A DNA stretch of 64,000 nucleotides from Zootoca vivipara (Eukaryota). The position numbers and the translations under genes were made by a program. The notes under the pieces were generated by a model that searched no databases, was not told the origin of the DNA, and saw only the letters and a list, made by a program, of their open reading frames with translations. Below are positions 32,482 through 41,800 of the stretch, in pieces (position 1 is the first letter of the stretch; each line of letters opens with the position of its first letter). The stretch spans positions 18,476,001-18,540,000 of the forward strand of contig NC_083287.1 of assembly GCF_963506605.1 (NCBI RefSeq), read 5' to 3'.

Positions 32482-33220
32482 CAGTGGTGGCGAACCTATG
32501 ACACGCGTGTCAGACGTGACACGCAAAGCCCTCACTGCTGGCACGCGCCCCATCGGCCCATTCACGCTGTTGTTGTTGTCCCCCCCCCATTTGTTCTCCC
32601 GCTCCTCCTACAGCTTGTCTCCGCTACAGCTTGTCTCTGCCGTTAAAACCCATAAAACCCAGATCCGTTTTTGTTGTTGTTGCTGCTGGTAACTAGATTG
32701 GTTTTTTAACCCTTTCTGTGCTTTTTTCCTGGCACTTTGGCAGACTATGATTGGGTGCAACAGCGTTTGTTTTTAACCTGTTCTGTGCTGGGTTTTTTTG
32801 CGCTTTGGAAGACTAGGTCGGTGCTGCGTGTTAGTTCCAGCGAAGGTATTATTTGTCATTTATTTCTGTTCTCCCCCCCCAAAAAAGCACAGCAGCTTTG
32901 GGGCATCCCCCCAAAAAAGCAAAGCAACTTTTGCACCCCCCCCAAAAAAAACCTCCAAAACTTTGGTCAGCAGCTCCCCCCCAAAAAGCTCAACAACTCT
33001 GGGCACTTTGTGATAAATAAGGGTTTTTTGGTTTGGTTTGGTTTGGTTTGGTTAATTAATTAGTTTTTGGTTTATTAAATACAGTTATATATTACAATTA
33101 TACATTTTTGTTATTTAAACTATAAATATCACAAAATTATGGTTTTTTCTCGAAGTGACACACCACCCGAGTTATGCTCGGTTTTTTGACACACCAAGCT
33201 CAAAAGGTTGCCCATCACTG
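32482..33220. mobile_element. Non-autonomous hAT element (hAT1-like)
   Basis: TIRs CAGTGGTGGCGAACCT / AGGTTGCCCATCACTG; subterminal GACAC motifs; TSD ATCTAGGA. Confidence 0.88.
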
Positions 33221-33721
33221 ATCTAGGATCATCAATCTATTTACACTGATGCTGTACTTCCTATGACCAACAATTCATATTACTCTAATTTAGAATTATC
33301 ATACAAATATTATAGCTATATGTATTAAATTTTATATCAACTCAGAAACTAGAGACCCGTTACTTTAATGAAAGAAAAGTTAGTCTCTGCAAAACAGGAA
33401 CTTATAAACTTCATGCATTTAAGTTTCCCCTCTTCAGCAGATCATTGCACTATGCTCAAGAGGCCATAGGATTAAGGCCATTGATCCTGTGGGTGCTGTA
33501 TATTTAAACTCTTCTGCAGCTGAATTTAGGTTAAGGCTGACTATAGGAGGAGACATTTTTAAAGACAAAAATATCGCAAGTGAAATGTCAAAGAAGAGTG
33601 TGATAAAAAATATCAACATACATAGCCAAAATAAATCTGTATGATGCAAAAAATTTAAATCATGCCGCTGTTACCAGAATGTAGCATAGTACTAAGGGAT
33701 ACATACTTTATACCGGTATCT

Positions 33722-33930
33722 ACAAAGCGCTTTATATCATATAATATAAAGCGGATTGTGGTAGGGCTGTTAAGAAATTTAGCTTAGGGTTTGGTTTGTG
33801 TAAGGCCACAGCTCATGCTGAGTAATGGGGGGCGTGTGTATGCAAATTCCTTGGATCTGATTGGTTGGTGGGGCCCCTCTTAAAGCTGCGTCCACCATTT
33901 TCTGGTCACATTTTTGCCTGGCGTTTGAAC
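33722..33930 (+). repeat. Split direct repeat A1 (209 bp)
   Basis: Identical by eye to 40725-40933. Confidence 0.95.
33815..33902 (+). promoter_or_regulatory. Putative Pol II promoter within repeat A
   Basis: TGCTGAGTAA, GC box GGGGCGTG, octamer ATGCAAAT (33840-33847), CTGATTGG (CCAAT box), CTTAAAG near 33880, CCATTTT. Confidence 0.55.
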
Positions 33931-34816
33931 TGTGTGTTTCTATCGGTTCCTGTCTGGCAAGAGAGCGTTCCTGGATTCCTGGAGTCTGGTTGTATCTGGC
34001 TTATTTAATTTGCTGATTTATTCAGCTTATTGCTTGCTTTTGATTTTTAGCTTTCATTTACTGCCTTATTTAGCTCCGTTTTGATTCTCCCCCTCCCCTC
34101 CCTCCCCACTCCCTTCCCCTACGGCTCGGCCTCGGCTAGGGGCGTTGGGAGTCCCCCCCCCCCGCACAGGCATCCCACTTTATTTAAAGGGCGCACCCCC
34201 CTTTAGATTCCTTTAAATTCTTTAAATTCCCCCCCCCGCTTGCCTTGGCTAGCCTGCTGTGGCTCTTGGTGGGCAAGGGGGCCTTGGTACCCTGAGGGAG
34301 CCTTGGCTCCTGGCTCCTTGCCTGGCCGTTTTCCTGCTGGGGCTGGGCTGGGCTGGGCTGGAGCCACGTGGGTGGTTAATAGGGCTGTTGCCGGCTGAGG
34401 AGCATTGAGGCTGCTTGCGCTCTGCTGGGGGCCTCTAATTTGGCTTATTGGGGGCTGTGGCGTTTGCCGCCCCCCCTGGGGTGCCTGCGGGGTGGGGGTG
34501 CATCATTGGGAGGGCGCCAGGCCGTTATTGTGCCTGGTTTGCACGCTGCGTCCGCCATTTTAATGCTTGCAACCCCCTTTGCTATTAAGCAGAGAGCTGC
34601 TGCTTGTGCATTGGGGGGAGCGGTTTGAGGGGGGTTGCTGGGTCTTTAGGACCTTGGGAGGGGGTCCCCTCACTTGATTCACCTGGGGGGCCTCTAGTTT
34701 TTGTGTCCTGTATAGCGTTTGTTTTCTGTTTGCATCTGTTTTAGCTGAGGAAAATTTTTTTTCCTGGCTGCAGTTTATTTCGAGGCTTGAGTGCTTGCAG
34801 CCAGTTTCTGGGCGTT

Positions 34817-34850
34817 TGGCGCCATCTACTGGCCACGAGTTGTTACTACA
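34817..34850 (-). promoter_or_regulatory. Putative CTCF site (core plus upstream motif)
   Basis: Minus strand TGTAGTAAC-N6-TGGCCAGTAGATGGCGCCA. Confidence 0.55.
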
Positions 34851-35648
34851 CCTACAAATTTAATTGCCTTTTCCCTCAGCCTATATTGAAGTCCCTTGAG
34901 CAGGCTTTGACTTTATTGTGTTGCCTGACTAGCTTATTGGGTCATTTTAACTTATTGGTTTCCTTTAATTACTTGATTTAATTTATATCCTTTTATTTAG
35001 GAATCTTAATTGATTCCATTGGATTATAATTGGCTTTGACCTGCGTGGGCTTGCTTTGGTTAAGTGAAAGGAAAAAACTTTTACTCCTTGCCTTTAATTG
35101 GAGGCCTGAGTACTGCAGCCTACTTTAGGTTCTCTATGCCATCGGCTGGCCTCAAGGGGGTTATCGCACCTTGTTAGTTTTGATACTGTTCCTTCCCAAT
35201 AGATAGGGAATACATTGCTTGGCCTGCGTTTTGGGTTTCTTGCATTGTTTAATTGGCTTAATTGATGTCCATTGTTTAATTCAATTTAATTTTAATTCAC
35301 GTTAATTTAGTTTTCACGTATTCTGGTTAAGGATTCTATTTGGTTGCGTGGGTGGGAGTTTGGCTTTGGCCTGCGCATTTCCCTCTCCCTCCCTTTTAGG
35401 GGGGGGGCCGGGGCGTGTGCCGGGGTCCGGCCTACACCAGCCTGCAATACAAGTCTAACTGATTTCCCTGGGGCCTTTCAGAGGCCTGGGTGTCCCCAAA
35501 TATTTTGCAGTTAGTTTTGCAGATTGGTTGGGAAGGCTCCAATATTTGAGGGGTGGGGTGACGCCGCCTAGTGGTTAAAGTGGTAATACGCACCCCTGTG
35601 TGATTCCACGTGTGTTTGCTTGTTATTCCAAGTAGTTAATAGTTCAGG

Positions 35649-37332
35649 ATGGCGGCCCACCCATCCACTTCAGGGAAATCTAAGAGGGTCATTAAGGGCG
35701 CTTCGCAGAAGCTGCGTTCGCCAGCCTCGCAGGCAGCGGGTCGCGTGGAAGCATTCATCGCTAGCATTGCTGGTGACCCACAGGCCCTGGCCCAGCTTGG
35801 ATCTGGGCTTGATGCCTTATTACAGAACCCGGCCTCTCATCCTGCCGCCTCGACCTCTGCTGGTTTACCTCTGGAAGCAGGGCGGGAGGCGGCGACTACG
35901 GCCATGCCTCCAGACCGGCAAGGCCCAGACCCTCTTTCTGCCCCCTCTACCTCTGCAGGTGTATCCCTGGACCCTGGGCAAGCTACGGTGGCGGCGTCGC
36001 AGCCTCTGTCCCCCATGGCGACCATTCTGGGACTGCCTGAGACCACCACGTCTGGGCCAGTTGACTCGTCGGATGACGACTTCGTGGGGCCTTCTGGTGT
36101 TCTGATGCCGAATGCCTCTTCCACTCCTATGGTGGTGCCGGCGCCCCCTCCCGTCAAACGACGAAGTGAGGGGAAGCAGCCTCGGCGCACCAGGAGGGCG
36201 AGGCAGGCTAAGGGCAGAGTAAGTGGGCAAGGGCAGGGGGGGGCGGACGGGGGCCTCCTCTAATGTTGTTGTTTCGCCCGTTGCTCCATCCCAGACTCTT
36301 GCCGTCGCCTCGCGGCGCGAGGGGCTTTCGTCGGCATCCGGCGAGGAAGCCCTCCCAGTGCCGGCTAGAGCGTCGAGTGGCGGAAAACGTCGTCACAAAA
36401 GTCGTTCCAGGAGGCGGGCAAAGAGGCGCAAGGACGATACCTCGGCTTCGACCACCTCAGGTTCGTCCTCTAGCTCCGAGGGTTCTGATCACTCTATGGG
36501 GTTGTACTGGGCTTACGGGGAAGTGGATTCTGGCCTTCCTCGTTGGGCCTGGGCTCGTCGAGCGAATTCGCATCGTGCTCGTTATGGAGCTGTTCAAGAA
36601 TGTCTCGACGGAGAGTTGGTCCCGGAAACCACGGTTTCCACCAACAGTACTAGGGATATTATTCCGGGCAGTCACTTGTCCTCTAAATTGAGGTCTAGGA
36701 TATTGGATGGTAAATAGGTAGACATTTTTGATTTAGCTCCACCAGAGGAGGTGGTCCCTGAGCAAGAAAACGCCCTCGTTGGTACTAAGAAGAAAGGCAG
36801 GGGGAGAAAGGTGGAGCGGACTTTCGAGCGTTGGCTCGATTGTTATCAAGTTTTTTCCGGGGTAGTAGTAGCGGCATATCCCCGCAGGGCTCTACACCTT
36901 ATCGTGTACCAGTCCATCGTAAGGTCAGCATATAACATGGCAGGGGAAGCGGCCGCAATTGCTTCTGATGAAAGATTTCGCAGGCGGGCGTCAAAAATTG
37001 ACACCGCCCGCTTTGACAGGAAAGACTTGGACCTTTGGACCACGTATGTGGCTCCGTCGGTTTCACGGAAACCCGCCGAGCAGCAAAGGGCTGAGACCCA
37101 GCCTTTTAAGGCGGCACCTAAATTGCGCTGCTGGGATTTCAATAAAGGACTGTGTCAGCGCCCGCGGTGTATTTATGCGCACACTTGTGACCGGTGTGGC
37201 GGTAGCCACCCGGCTGTTAACTGCTATGCGGGCCGGCGGCCCTTTCGTGGGGGTCGGGGAGGATTCAGGCAGGCGCCAAGGGGTTCCGCCCCTGCCCTCC
37301 CCGCTCCCCCCGCAGCTTCCACATCAAAGTGA
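35649..37332 (+). pseudogene. Ngaro gag-like ORF1, disrupted
   Basis: ATG at 35649; frameshift near the G8 run at 36236-36243; TAG at 36715-36717 in GK*VDIF; C-terminal zinc finger CWDFNKGLCQRPRCIYAHTCDRCGGSHPAVNC followed by RGG repeats. Confidence 0.82.
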
Positions 37333-38494
37333 ATTGCTTCAGTTAGCTTTTTCTCCCATTAAGTTACCGGCCCTTAAACATTGGTTAGCCTCCTATCCCA
37401 ATATTGAGGCGGCTGCATATCTTCGGGATGGTTTCTCCTTCGGGTTCCGGATTCCGATAGCTTCGGTTCCCCTGGCTAGGAATCCTAGGAATCAGAAGTC
37501 GGTGAGAGAGATGCACGAGGTCGCAAGGCGGAAGGTTAATAAAGAAATAGCCCTCCAGCGCATGGCTGGTCCTTTTGCGTCTCCGCCTTTTCCCAATCTG
37601 CACCTCTCTCCCTTGGGAATCGTCCCCAAGAAGGCTCCGGGTGAGTTTCGGCTCATTCATAATTTGTCTCACCCTAGGGACACGTCCGTGAACGACGTGA
37701 TCCCTCCGGAGCTTTGTACGGTCAAATACGCTTCTCTCGACCAGGCAATTAAAATGATCAGAAAGTTTGGGCCGGGGGCCTTGTTGGCAAAATGTGATAT
37801 CGAATCGGCTTTCCGATTATTACCAATTCATCCGCATGATTTTTGGTTGCTGGGCTTTCAGTTTGAAGGCGCCTATTATTTTGATAAGGCCATGCCAATG
37901 GGCTGCTCCGTAGCCTGTGCGGCCTTCGAGCGCTTATCGCAGGGTGAGAAGGCTGACATGAGGATGTGGCTGGTATTCCTGGAGGAATACAATGGGGTAT
38001 CCTTGTGGCAGGATGTTTTAAACCTGCACAACGATTTCCAAGTGCACTCCGATGCGGCGGGTTCCCTGGGATTTGGTTTGTTTTGGAATGGCAGGTGGTG
38101 CGCACAAAGATGGCCCCCTGCTTGGCGGGACACTGAAATCACGCGGGATTTAACTTTTCTTGAGTTCTTTCCTATAGCAGTTGCAGTCCATATTTGGGTT
38201 GACGACTTCAAGGACCGCCGCGTATGCTTTTGGTCAGATAACCAGGCTGTGGTGACTGTCCTTGCGAAACAATCTTCTAAGTCAACTCGGGTATCGGCTC
38301 TGCTGCGGGCATTCGTGCTGCAGTGCCTGCGTTTTAACATTATTTTCTCTGCGCGTTTTGTCCCGGGCGTGGCCAACGATATAGCTGACGCTTTGTCACG
38401 ATTTCAGATGGAGCGCTTCAGGTCCCTGGTTCCAGACGCACAACATCAGCCGGAGATTTTCCCGGATCGTCTTTGGAACCTTGGCAGCTGCTAG
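36959..38494 (+). pseudogene. Ngaro reverse transcriptase/RNase H with in-frame deletion of the RT catalytic region
   Basis: SPLGIVPKK..FRLIHNLS, AKCDIESAFRLLP and MPMGC present, but no YxDD; RNase H motifs SDA, LEF, SDN and ADALSR intact. Confidence 0.9.
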
Positions 38495-39387
38495 TCTTGC
38501 AGGGAGTAGCTGCTTCTGTTTCCCCCTCTACCCTGCGGGCTTATCAAAAAGCTTGGACTGACTTTTTAACTTTTCGCAGTCAGTCGCTCGCGGTGGAGGG
38601 AGCGGCCCGCCCCTCTTCTTCCCAGGTGCTTCAATATTTGGCACACCTGTTTCACCTGGGAAGGGCTGCCAGGACCATAAAGCTCCAGTCTGCGGCCATT
38701 TCATTTTTCTCGAAATTGTTTTTTAATAGGGACCCTTGCGCCAAATTTGTGGTGCGTAAGGCCATGGAGGGATGGGGTAGGCCTTGTCCTCCCCGTTCCC
38801 CTACCAGGAACCCGATTTCTTTTGATCTTCTCACTAAAATGAGATTGAAGCTTAGGGTGGTGTGTTGGTCTAAATATGAGGCCCGTTTGTTTTCGGCCGC
38901 CTTCTCAGTGGCCTTTTTTGGCGCTTTGAGAATTGGTGAAATTGTAGGGGGTCAGATGCGTCAGGGGGTGCCAGGGGGTTTGCTACTCCAGGACATACGT
39001 CTGTCGCCAACGGAATTGTTAATCACGATTCGGAGTTCCAAGACCGACCAGGCTGGTAAAGGAGCAGTAATGCGACTGCCTGCTACGGGGCAGACGGGCC
39101 CCTGCCCGGTTAAGGACGTAGCCAAATTCTTGGCGGAAAGGCCAGCTGGGGAGGGCCCCTTGTTTGTGCATCAGGATGGTAACCCGATGACTAGGCTGCA
39201 ATTTACTAGAGTTATGAGGAAGGTGATAGCGGCATGCGGTTGCGTGGCCGCTAATTACGCTCCTCATTCCTTTCGCATTGGGGCCGCCACTACGGCGGCC
39301 CACTGGGGTCTTTCGGTTGATGCTATTAAGGATTTGGGCAGGTGGAAATCTGCAGCGTATAGATCTTATGTTCGGAAGCGCTCCTAA
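38473..39387 (+). CDS. Tyrosine recombinase (start uncertain, no ATG)
   Basis: ALRIGE (R), SKTDQ (K), HSFRIG (HxxR), LGRWKS (W), YRSYVR (Y); N-terminal STLRAYQKAW. Confidence 0.92.
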   Translation: MEPWQLLVLQGVAASVSPSTLRAYQKAWTDFLTFRSQSLAVEGAARPSSSQVLQYLAHLFHLGRAARTIKLQSAAISFFSKLFFNRDPCAKFVVRKAMEGWGRPCPPRSPTRNPISFDLLTKMRLKLRVVCWSKYEARLFSAAFSVAFFGALRIGEIVGGQMRQGVPGGLLLQDIRLSPTELLITIRSSKTDQAGKGAVMRLPATGQTGPCPVKDVAKFLAERPAGEGPLFVHQDGNPMTRLQFTRVMRKVIAACGCVAANYAPHSFRIGAATTAAHWGLSVDAIKDLGRWKSAAYRSYVRKRS

Positions 39388-39396
39388 CTTTGTCGT

Positions 39397-39993
39397 TTGT
39401 TTTCCAATGTTTTCCCAGGGCTCGCGGACGTGCACATATGGATGGTGGGACATTCCATAGTCCATTGGGCAGGCCTTCGCGCTGGCCAAACGCCATTGGG
39501 TCCTCGACTTGGCCTTCCATCCAACATCCAAGTGACCTGGATGGGCAAGAGGGGCATGCGCTGGGGGGAGCTTCTCCCTTTGCTGCGGCGCAAAGCCCTC
39601 TTGCTCGGGTGCCCGTCCGCCCTGGTGATCCAGCTGGGAGAAAATGACATCCCCGCTGTGGACCCGTTATCTCTTCGCCTGGCTATCCTACGAGATTTGT
39701 TGGAGATAAGGACTTGGTTCCCTGATACCGTCGTTTTTTGGTCCCAAATGTTGCAGAGGATGCAATGGCGGGGTGATATTCCTCCTCTGGCTGGGGAAAG
39801 AGCTAGGAAGAGGGTTAACAGCGCAGCATCCAAACGGGTGTACGAAATCGGGGGGAGTTTGATTCGTCATCCCGCAATTAATGTTAGAGCCCCGCTTTTA
39901 TATCGGGATGATGGGGTTCACTTATCCCCTGATGGGTATGACATTTGGCTGCGTGATGTGTCTGAGGGTTTAAAAAGTTGGTTAGGTCTCTGA
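39397..39993 (+). CDS. SGNH/GDSL-family hydrolase (start uncertain, probably spliced)
   Basis: Block I VGHSIV, block II GKRG, block III LGEND, block V DGVH. Confidence 0.88.
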   Translation: MFSNVFPGLADVHIWMVGHSIVHWAGLRAGQTPLGPRLGLPSNIQVTWMGKRGMRWGELLPLLRRKALLLGCPSALVIQLGENDIPAVDPLSLRLAILRDLLEIRTWFPDTVVFWSQMLQRMQWRGDIPPLAGERARKRVNSAASKRVYEIGGSLIRHPAINVRAPLLYRDDGVHLSPDGYDIWLRDVSEGLKSWLGL

Positions 39994-40022
39994 GTGTTGG
40001 CGGCAAGCCAGGGCTGGCTTGA

Positions 40023-40728
40023 TTGGCGGTTAGGCTTTTGGTTGGTTAATCGGTTGGTAGAGGGGGTGGCACACGGATGCCTACCCTCACCTCCGTTTGC
40101 TCCATATAGAAGTATTCCGTTAAAGGAATCTCGGGGCTTACACTCTTGTCCTTACCATCCCGCCATTGGCGGGAATGGTGGGCCCAATTTTAAGAGCAAG
40201 AGCCTTGAGGAACATTCTTGGTGAAGGTGAGGAGGGAATGACTGGGCGCAGCCACCTCCTCACTCCCAGGTATGTTTACTTGACTTCCATGCGGAAGTCG
40301 GAGCAGGAACTGTCCAAGCGGACAGTGGTGAGTCCTGTCCTATGGTGACAGCTGATGTGAGTCCTGCCACGTGGGCAGATGAGGTGAGTCCTGTCCAATG
40401 GTGACAGCTGATGTGAGTCCTGCCACGTGGGCAGATGAGGTGAGTCCTGTCCAATGGTGACAGCTGATGTGAGTCCTGCCACGTGGGGCAGATGAGGTGA
40501 GTCCTGTCCTAAGGGGACAGCTGATTGAGTCCTGTCCTGGATGGACAGATGGGGATAGTCCTTCTTTAGGAAGGACGAGTGAATAACCAAAAGCCTAAGC
40601 CAACACTCGGATTAAATTGTGTATTTAATAAAGTTGTGGCCCTAAATTATTTGCCAAAAACCAAACCATAATTCTGTTGTCAGTTGTGAGTTATTTAAGG
40701 TAATTTTCTGGGAAGCCTCGACACACAA
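40023..40728 (+). repeat. Split direct repeat B1 (706 bp)
   Basis: Identical by eye to 41095-41800 (offset 1072); AATAAA at 40627-40632. Confidence 0.95.
40309..40576 (+). repeat. Tandem hairpin array in B1 (alternating 29/27-bp units, 56-bp period)
   Basis: Repeated GTGAGTC-CTGYC-loop-GRCAG. Confidence 0.9.
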
Positions 40729-40933
40729 AGCGCTTTATATCATATAATATAAAGCGGATTGTGGTAGGGCTGTTAAGAAATTTAGCTTAGGGTTTGGTTT
40801 GTGTAAGGCCACAGCTCATGCTGAGTAATGGGGGGCGTGTGTATGCAAATTCCTTGGATCTGATTGGTTGGTGGGGCCCCTCTTAAAGCTGCGTCCACCA
40901 TTTTCTGGTCACATTTTTGCCTGGCGTTTGAAC
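40725..40933 (+). repeat. Split direct repeat A2
   Basis: Copy of 33722-33930; overlaps B1 by ACAA. Confidence 0.95.
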
Positions 40934-41094
40934 CCCTCCCACCCGCCCTTTCTTTCTTGCAGGTTAGCACGACATTGCTATTGCCTTCGGGGCCGCCTGT
41001 ATTCAGGGGTCAGTAGGAATTTTTCCAATTGGCTGATTGGCTGTGCCTCTTGGTTTTCGCCTACTGCGCTAGCAAATTGTCACAACTTGTTAGG

Positions 41095-41800
41095 TTGGCG
41101 GTTAGGCTTTTGGTTGGTTAATCGGTTGGTAGAGGGGGTGGCACACGGATGCCTACCCTCACCTCCGTTTGCTCCATATAGAAGTATTCCGTTAAAGGAA
41201 TCTCGGGGCTTACACTCTTGTCCTTACCATCCCGCCATTGGCGGGAATGGTGGGCCCAATTTTAAGAGCAAGAGCCTTGAGGAACATTCTTGGTGAAGGT
41301 GAGGAGGGAATGACTGGGCGCAGCCACCTCCTCACTCCCAGGTATGTTTACTTGACTTCCATGCGGAAGTCGGAGCAGGAACTGTCCAAGCGGACAGTGG
41401 TGAGTCCTGTCCTATGGTGACAGCTGATGTGAGTCCTGCCACGTGGGCAGATGAGGTGAGTCCTGTCCAATGGTGACAGCTGATGTGAGTCCTGCCACGT
41501 GGGCAGATGAGGTGAGTCCTGTCCAATGGTGACAGCTGATGTGAGTCCTGCCACGTGGGGCAGATGAGGTGAGTCCTGTCCTAAGGGGACAGCTGATTGA
41601 GTCCTGTCCTGGATGGACAGATGGGGATAGTCCTTCTTTAGGAAGGACGAGTGAATAACCAAAAGCCTAAGCCAACACTCGGATTAAATTGTGTATTTAA
41701 TAAAGTTGTGGCCCTAAATTATTTGCCAAAAACCAAACCATAATTCTGTTGTCAGTTGTGAGTTATTTAAGGTAATTTTCTGGGAAGCCTCGACACACAA
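41095..41800 (+). repeat. Split direct repeat B2 (hairpin array at 41381-41648; AATAAA at 41699-41704)
   Basis: Copy of B1; ends in ACAA. Confidence 0.95.

Follow-up and report, generated by a model that had tools for sequence, protein, structure and literature searches.

A conserved hairpin at the repeat junction of a Ngaro retrotransposon family in Zootoca vivipara and its putative role in integration

How retrotransposons with a gene for a tyrosine recombinase (YR) become integrated has not yet been shown, and the specificity of these recombinases had not been studied experimentally as of 2020, according to PMC7192593. A stretch of 64,000 nucleotides from Zootoca vivipara (NC_083287.1, positions 18,476,001 to 18,540,000 of the forward strand; here called the window) raises the question in a concrete form, since it holds an element whose end repeats, A and B, also meet internally at a seam, B1|A2. 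A preliminary description read this seam as a phage-like attachment site, in which a 4-bp ACAA core would be flanked by symmetric inverted arm motifs. Its letters and coordinates are all correct (ACAA at 33722-33725, 40725-40728 and 41797-41800), and the end counts of the family support B1|A2 as the type of junction at which the element recombines. Which features of the seam are conserved, and by what mechanism it may act, is examined below.

A Ngaro element and its family

The element at 33722-41800 is a Ngaro retrotransposon, placed by its structure (Table 1). On comparison of the letters, the split direct repeats A1 ... B1 A2 B2 that Ngaro requires are present, and 33722-33930 is identical to 40725-40933 (A1 against A2, with ACAA included). 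As far as the consulted sections of the sources go, Xenopus DIRS-53_XT (PMC9210276) and a Ngaro element of Cafeteria (PMC8547959) have the same layout, with the order A1-ORFs-B1-A2-B2, gag-like, RT-RH, YR and SGNH reading frames, and solo A-B units. The first coding region is probably gag-like, judging from its position in Ngaro elements (PMC9210276, in part), and had no Pfam match. The RNase H label on the following ORF is likewise presumptive. In the window copy, the RVT_1 score of this ORF is depressed by an in-frame internal deletion at about 37930-37935, which takes out the YLDD-bearing part and leaves the frame 147 codons shorter than in 18 other copies, where YLDD is present. Among 29 loci compared, the same deletion is common to the window copy and seven others (L061-L066, L081); these copies are nearly identical at separate genomic sites and, therefore, likely moved in trans. 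No methyltransferase family was matched at E 0.05 in the six translated frames scanned.

Phage_integrase and SAM-like domains were recovered from the YR by a profile scan. Among proteins of solved structure, Cre is the best match (E 7e-14, aligned over profile positions 63-363 of 369), and neither the scan nor the Cre alignment over these positions matched an arm-binding domain family. None of 12 YRs matched the IntI-specific models; the only hits were to models of the XerC/XerD/XerA type, far below cut-off. The closest named YR proteins are unannotated and originate from lacertid lizards and amphibians. The Zootoca vivipara genome carries a large, recent Ngaro radiation, with at least 150 YR matches at 60% identity or more among 817 candidates, most of them with open frames.

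Table 1. Features of the window element and its seam (window coordinates)
Feature	Position	Strand	Remarks
Host-derived 4-mer, left of the crossover at the left end	33722..33725	+	ACAA here; R-N-A-A in the family
A1 repeat	33726..33930	+	33726 is the first element base by the family crossover
Gag-like region (putative) with Cys/His cluster	35649..37332	+	broken by a frame change and a stop
RT/RNase H-like ORF	36923..38494	+	RVT_1 E 0.0028, under the curated cut-off
Tyrosine recombinase (YR) ORF	38389..39387	+	Cre/Xer-like, two domains, catalytic R-K-H-R-W-Y kept
SGNH/GDSL hydrolase ORF	39388..39993	+	Lipase_GDSL_2 E 4.3e-05; typical of some Ngaro elements (PMC9210276, in part)
B1 repeat	40023..40728	+	706 bp identical to B2; holds the 56-bp tandem array
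AATAAA poly(A) hexamer and conserved AGTTGTGGCC	40627..40641	+	motif in 26/26 diverged types
Left inner motif AAACCAAACC	40658..40667	+	predicted to pair with 40791-40800; partner not conserved
Near outer stem, B end with A start	40684..40790, limits approximate	+	continues the hairpin
Conserved junction hairpin	40720..40765	+	DNA z -5.8; covariation
Hairpin, 5' side	CACAA 40724-40728; crossover 40728^40729; 6-nt spacer 40729-40734; TT 40735-40736	+	
Hairpin, loop and 3' side	loop 40741-40746; AA 40751-40752; partner spacer 40753-40758; TTGTG 40759-40763	+	
A2 repeat	40729..40933	+	repeat comparison
Right-hand motifs GGTTTGGTTT and GGCCACAGCT	40791..40816	+	predicted outer helices in the window family; not conserved
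Spacer s, A2 to B2	40934..41094	+	
B2 repeat	41095..41800	+	last letters are the element's own ACAA

Comparisons were drawn from 79 loci of the window element's family, which supplied 74 left and 78 right ends, and from 50 diverged loci of the same genome with a YR identity of 60-84% (the sister families). Of these 50, 36 were parsed with B1/B2; the other 14 (13 without a pair, and L177, a parsing miss) stand outside the target counts and were checked separately. The junctions comprise 27 distinct types when the window copy is included, and 26 diverged sister types. A distant YR used as a genome query returned no match above 41% identity, and its matches, many of them at places found before, were taken as families already sampled. 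More remote relatives came from metagenomes: 47 loci, of which those of 2500 bases or more were self-compared, gave five usable junctions in two families. In viral contigs, no relative of the element was found.

Solo A-s-B units account for 44 of the 79 family loci, full A-X-B-A-s-B elements for 19 and A-X-B forms for eight; six loci have one end not seen, one is a tandem dimer (C2:27638441) and one reads A-s-B-A-s-B (C3:25997445). According to an excerpt of PMC6681497, SIRE of Trypanosoma cruzi corresponds to A2 plus B2 of VIPER; here too, solo A-spacer-B units are more frequent than full elements. About 16 solos (e.g., L112, L131, L136, L137, L147, L148, L149) form a clade with variants peculiar to it; none of the loci examined is a full two-junction copy belonging to this clade, and the mean difference among nine of its members is 0.6%. 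The clade may represent a non-autonomous unit comparable to SIRE, or else a burst of slightly greater age that has since collapsed. Solos derived from the A pair, which is short and distant, are far more numerous than those derived from the long and close B pair, and a sister-family locus, L190, has three B ends (A-X-B-A-s-B-A-s-B). The tandem array in B is built of 27/29-nt units with a period of 56 bp (40327-40562 and 41399-41634), and A-s-B lengths step by about 56 bp among copies (about 960, 1020 and 1076), suggesting a variable copy number of the array. A 23-nt inverted pair within B (40030-40052 with 40576-40598) brings the start of B beside the poly(A) hexamer. In the left flank of the element, 33050-33230 holds a very high-copy repeat.

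All copies share one crossover point

In every copy, the exchange between element and host lies at the same point, right after the AA of the element. Family copies end on the right with the element's ACAA in 78 of 78 cases, and the next base is A in 44 and T in 20. Many right ends were located with a pattern that itself contains ACAA; a core-free pattern gave 105 B ends versus 106 with the core, and the 99 listed on C1-C14 coincide by eye. Therefore, variant right ends were not missed. The left ends, read with target sequences rebuilt from the flanks of each insertion, are of another kind. Their last four bases (n = 74) are ATAA in 17 cases, ACAA in 13, AAAA in seven, AGAA in seven and one of 13 rarer types in the rest, so that the fixed 4-bp ACAA core first proposed as common to element and target does not hold. 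By position, a purine stands first in 67 of the 74, any base second, A third in 72 and A fourth in 66. The 74 left and 78 right ends together give the target consensus R-N-A-A^W. It matches the element at positions -4, -2, -1 and +1 only, with nothing at +2 to +12, and only the AA is near-invariant.

In eight copies, the last base of the left end is not A, yet the right end is still ACAA; the right-hand AA is, therefore, not a target duplication. These data support insertion by joining at a short A-rich target match, without target-site duplication. All 74 left ends of the family keep the element's 6-nt spacer. In the sister families, 36 of 36 right ends keep the junction 5-mer and 33 of 34 left ends keep the spacer, while the left ends (n = 34) have a purine in 32, A in 33 and A in 32 at the first, third and fourth bases; the target base at +1 is not enriched there (A in 11 of 36). 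Right flanks starting with the element's spacer, as the product of a second cut would, were found in 0 of 78 family and 0 of 36 sister copies. At the left end of the window element, flank contigs of three sequencing runs stop exactly at 33725, and one contig of run X11 follows the flank to 33725 and continues with 73 letters absent from A1. These contig ends fit ACAA at 33722-33725 being host sequence. For DIRS1-like elements, Table 3 of PMC3266345 lists circular junctions of the form AAN and some elements that start with NTT but end with NAT; NAT ends would match the AT tolerance on the target side here (7 of 74).

The reconstructed target had also been described as weakly dyad-symmetric. Over 73 targets, the mean is 2.56 of 10 matches versus 2.55 for permuted flanks, two of the 73 reach 7 of 10, and no signal is seen at the centre originally proposed or at 72 other settings of centre and spacer. 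Across the family, such symmetry is no more than chance.

The distribution of the copies also bears on the form of the integrating molecule. On a circle of the whole element, the two seams would be identical over 706 bp to the left and 205 bp to the right, and their equal use would make half of the copies permuted (A-s-B-A-X-B). No permuted element occurs among 20 two-junction family copies (a chance of about 1 in a million under equal use), and 0 of 43 A starts upstream of the YR in sister families are preceded by a B end. Thus, the simple circle form with two equal hairpins fails, and an extra assumption is needed. Given that the seams are identical and permuted copies absent, it cannot be local arms that define the site of integration, and the internal seam more likely serves as a template than as such a site. 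A1 and A2 carry the same subfamily variants in all 19 single full-length copies and are identical over the compared stretch in 15.

A conserved, covarying hairpin at the seam

At the B|A seam lies a hairpin that is conserved and covaries, and whose 5' arm contains the crossover immediately behind AA. Its 5' side runs from a box across the cut and six bases to TT, a short stem closes on a variable loop, and the 3' side leads from AR across six bases to a second box. This geometry, CRCAA^N6-TT...AR-N6-TTGYG, is present in 27 of 27 distinct junction types (YR 60-80% identical to that of the window copy). Position +1, the first base after the cut, is Watson-Crick paired in none of the 27 and forms G.T in three. 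Across 23 aligned junctions, 97.3% of the main-helix cells are paired, and in 10 of 18 pairs both partners have changed, among them an A-T to G-C exchange in the box. The covariation score of 0.386 was reached by 0 of 500 shuffles and compares with 0.06-0.14 for slid controls, bearing in mind that related sequences can outscore shuffles. Within the family, variants found in five or more of 74 A starts (+1, +16, +17 and +29) all fall at unpaired positions; a C to T change in three copies retains a G.T pair, and three single-copy changes break pairs. Outside the outer box, A stands at -6 in 25 of 27 types and is predicted to be unpaired in 8 of 10 + strand folds. The hairpin is the strongest symmetric feature of the seam and was absent from the preliminary description.

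In both distant metagenome families (YR 32-40% identical), an inverted repeat brackets AA at the seam, and the register of the hairpin is looser. L225 folds well (z -5.4) but has spacers of 6 and 5, whereas the folds of L219 and L231 are not better than shuffles (z -0.9 to -1.5) and their +7/+8 positions are not TT. The family of L219-L221 and L231 reads AA^C at the seam with GTT in the partner arm, which is the integron triplet. Rfam holds no family for the junction (best E 0.26). No description of a Ngaro or DIRS junction hairpin, nor a comparison with integrons, was found in the consulted parts of the literature (PMC3783388, PMC3266345, PMC4157794 and PMC6681497 included), and an earlier notice in the founding Ngaro papers is possible.

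The inverted motifs that had been taken for recombinase arm sites do exist. AGTTGTGGCC (40632-40641) and GGCCACAGCT (40807-40816) are complementary at 9 of 10 positions, and AAACCAAACC (40658-40667) and GGTTTGGTTT (40791-40800) at 10 of 10. They are roughly centred on the junction in the window copy, but share no common centre (40724 and 40729, with the core centre at 40726.5). Two or more centred pairs of at least 9/10 occurred in 1 of 2000 dinucleotide shuffles and two such pairs anywhere in 68 of 2000, a post hoc figure for which the search window and tolerance were picked to fit the observed pairs. In the window family, the whole fold-back is predicted at -82.6 kcal/mol as RNA (z -6.8, 241-nt region), with z -6.5 as DNA. 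The two pairs are its predicted outermost helices and are, therefore, base-pairing features rather than protein arm sites.

Conservation decreases outward from the hairpin. For the near outer stem, a + strand duplex z of -2 or lower was obtained in 11 of 15 families with RNA parameters and in 11 of 15 with DNA parameters. Conserved distal arms were considered and rejected: a far-arm duplex z at or below -2 (DNA, + strand) was obtained in only 2 of 15 families, the window's and that of L171. Among the 26 diverged sister junction types, none shows a centred pair with 9/10 or more. AGTTGTGGCC itself is kept in 26 of 26, directly behind the hexamer, and its DNA partner in 0 of 26; with G.U pairs allowed, 3 of 27 types have a partner with z below -2, the window family among them. 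For the same reason, the suggestion that B1 would pair with A2 in RNA and mask the first poly(A) region finds no conservation behind it, and across families the accessibility of the hexamer in B1 is not consistently lower than in B2. With the arms not kept and a Cre/Xer-like recombinase in which no arm-binding domain was found, the phage-like layout of core and arms is not supported either. Lambda-type attP sites combine a core with arm sites and cross over at a short A-rich core. Unlike these, the seam has no conserved arms, no arm-binding domain to serve them and no target match of 6-7 bp.

How the seam may act in integration

Taken together, the hairpin, the single crossover class and the parallels with integrons, CTX phage and DIRS-1 favour the seam as a folded single-strand recombination site, which would undergo one strand exchange and be attC-like in its working yet not an attC. 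Based on sequence comparison, we give this reading an even chance. The Cre-like recombinase of the element would cut the folded strand once and join it to host DNA at R-N-A-A^W, and host replication or repair would complete the insertion. The folded molecule would be DNA, either a free single strand or an extruded cruciform, rather than RNA. N6 would act as the recombinase spacer between the CRCAA/TTGYG box and the TT/AR box. The internal B1|A2 copy most likely serves as a template for rebuilding the terminal seam in each cycle, not as an equivalent attP on a two-junction circle.

Tyrosine recombinases act at the 5' edge of a spacer of 6-8 bases, where each strand is cut and a 3'-phosphotyrosine remains. 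Two staggered cuts across an unmatched spacer are expected to give two product classes. A second cut six bases on would here place the element's spacer at the right ends and host bases at the left ends; the proposal, accordingly phrased for the single class seen, is that only one strand would be exchanged. With N6 as the spacer, the observed join would correspond to a cut in the + strand, presumably the reactive one. The + strand is weakly hinted at by the T.G at +7 (21 of 27 types, with T-A in six), by the purines that make up 94 of the 108 letters at loop positions +1/+2 and opposite them, and by the folding energy, which as DNA favours the + strand in 9 of 10 families. The hints are weak because the + strand of the element is G/T-skewed throughout, G.T fits RNA too and the cDNA of DIRS-1 is antisense; the families are also related. 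The antisense cDNA stands against a folded + strand as well, as this would need the sense strand. A - strand cut with TT as the first swapped bases fits the target consensus too.

A wider proposal is more tentative, and we regard it as possible rather than probable: Ngaro elements may integrate as folded single-stranded DNA by one recombinase exchange from a linear, terminally redundant strand, not from a double-stranded circle, and solo A-s-B and A-X-B copies may partly be direct hairpin-to-hairpin products. Such a strand would give exactly the full, A-X-B and A-s-B forms, and would fit the architectures seen; homologous recombination also yields A-X-B and A-s-B. In DIRS-1, the cDNA is single-stranded and mostly linear, and the circle junction could not be amplified (PMC7192593, as excerpted).

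Several known systems share parts of this scheme, as far as the consulted portions of the sources describe them. DIRS1-like elements also have an internal copy of the end junction, an AAN/NTT junction motif and no target duplication (PMC3266345, PMC7192593), and single-stranded cDNA has been shown for DIRS-1 itself (PMC7192593). They differ in having inverted repeats and an ICR able to pair with the ends, whereas the window element has direct repeats and the local hairpin would supply the partner strand. Moreover, their published model makes a double-stranded circle (PMC3266345, PMC7192593). The integron attC is cut in the folded strand between A and C of AAC, next to a purine-rich unpaired spacer (PMC5027507), and its recombination is resolved by replication (PMC3458562). 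In attC x attI recombination (PMC3458562, PMC5027507, PMC4792948), as at the seam, an imperfect hairpin is kept more in structure than in sequence, the terminal loop is variable and the products have one polarity; the cut after AA adjoining an unpaired purine-rich spacer is also shared (PMC5027507). Unlike attC, the seam has no AAC or RYYYAAC box (AA is followed by A or G in 27 of 27 types, and AAC occurs only in one distant metagenome family) and no extrahelical bases near its inner box (L box). None of the 12 YRs matched an IntI-specific model, and, unlike in the IntI system, a retroelement with a loose host target takes the place of attI. The CTX phage, whose folded attP is used by host XerCD, offers another parallel: here too, a folded strand mimics a duplex core, and the recombinase has no IntI-specific insertion (PMC4792948, PMC3458562). 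As in integrons, a single exchange is completed by replication (PMC4792948). However, CTX borrows host enzymes and a fixed chromosomal site, while the window element encodes its own enzyme and has thousands of possible sites.

The main alternative, which we consider unlikely although it retains an appreciable share of the probability, is that the hairpin acts in RNA, as a signal for RT pausing, template jumping or priming or for poly(A) choice, and that integration proceeds through an ordinary double-stranded junction with an AA match. The G.T/G.U pairs favour the sense strand, the 241-nt region folds well as RNA, and the subfamily variants common to A1 and A2 are expected if B1|A2 is the template. 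Transcription data agree with it as well: in run X21, sense reads span the junction to a depth of about 89-fold, and in run X22 the depth drops from about 55 to 10 past the hexamer. What an RNA role leaves unexplained is an unpaired loop exactly at the crossover, two spacers that are always 6 nt, an invariant TT at +7/+8 and the single crossover class; poly(A) masking, moreover, is not conserved. Within 40545-41090, the sense RNA of X21 continues past the junction and dwindles close to where A2 ends (40934), and that of X22 dwindles after the hexamer. Among the loose RNA read ends listed, no poly(A) tail was found. A search of sequencing runs listed no carrier that is recorded as RNA.

An improbable alternative dispenses with the circle by target-primed capture. 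The recombinase would nick the host after R-N-A-A, the host end would pair with the TT of an antisense cDNA and prime or capture it, and the hairpin would mark the start and the stop of copying. This would account for the single crossover, the match of 2-4 bases left of the cut and the absence of permuted forms, and it suits a DIRS-1 cDNA that is antisense, single-stranded and mostly linear (PMC7192593, in part). However, the base at the cut is looser (A in 66 of 74) than the preceding one (72 of 74), which would be unexpected for a primer end, and the anchor-bearing right ends, 78 of 78, are exact, being neither truncated nor extended by extra bases. In the parts of the literature consulted, no precedent was found.

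The model of the preliminary description, in which the recombinase would bind symmetric arm sites around a 4-bp ACAA core in a double-stranded attP of lambdoid style, is very improbable: the two roughly centred pairs of the window copy, the constant ACAA of the right ends and a published model in which the intermediate is circular and a short motif is shared (PMC3266345, PMC7192593) are outweighed by ACAA in only 13 of 74 targets, arms centred in none of the 26 sister types, a Cre-like enzyme in which no arm-binding domain was found, and identical seams with no permuted copy among those counted. Equally remote is a role without folding, with the 3' half of the hairpin as a second, inverted recombinase site in duplex DNA or as a template-switching by-product that keeps the repeats alike; both arms do read AA-N6-TT on opposite strands, but the spacer letters covary across families, keep T.G and always mismatch at +1, whereas copying would make perfect repeats and protein binding would need no complementary spacers.

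The window element itself is an ordinary family member; its conserved junction structure is real, and the integration mechanism is putative. The absence of permuted copies challenges the accepted model of a double-stranded circle. With a structure of 45 nt, a fixed cut position and the target R-N-A-A^W, the question of integration becomes testable with oligonucleotides. If the folded-strand reading is true, single-strand recombination by tyrosine recombinases would not be limited to bacteria, and Ngaro insertion would be a eukaryotic counterpart of integron cassette insertion.
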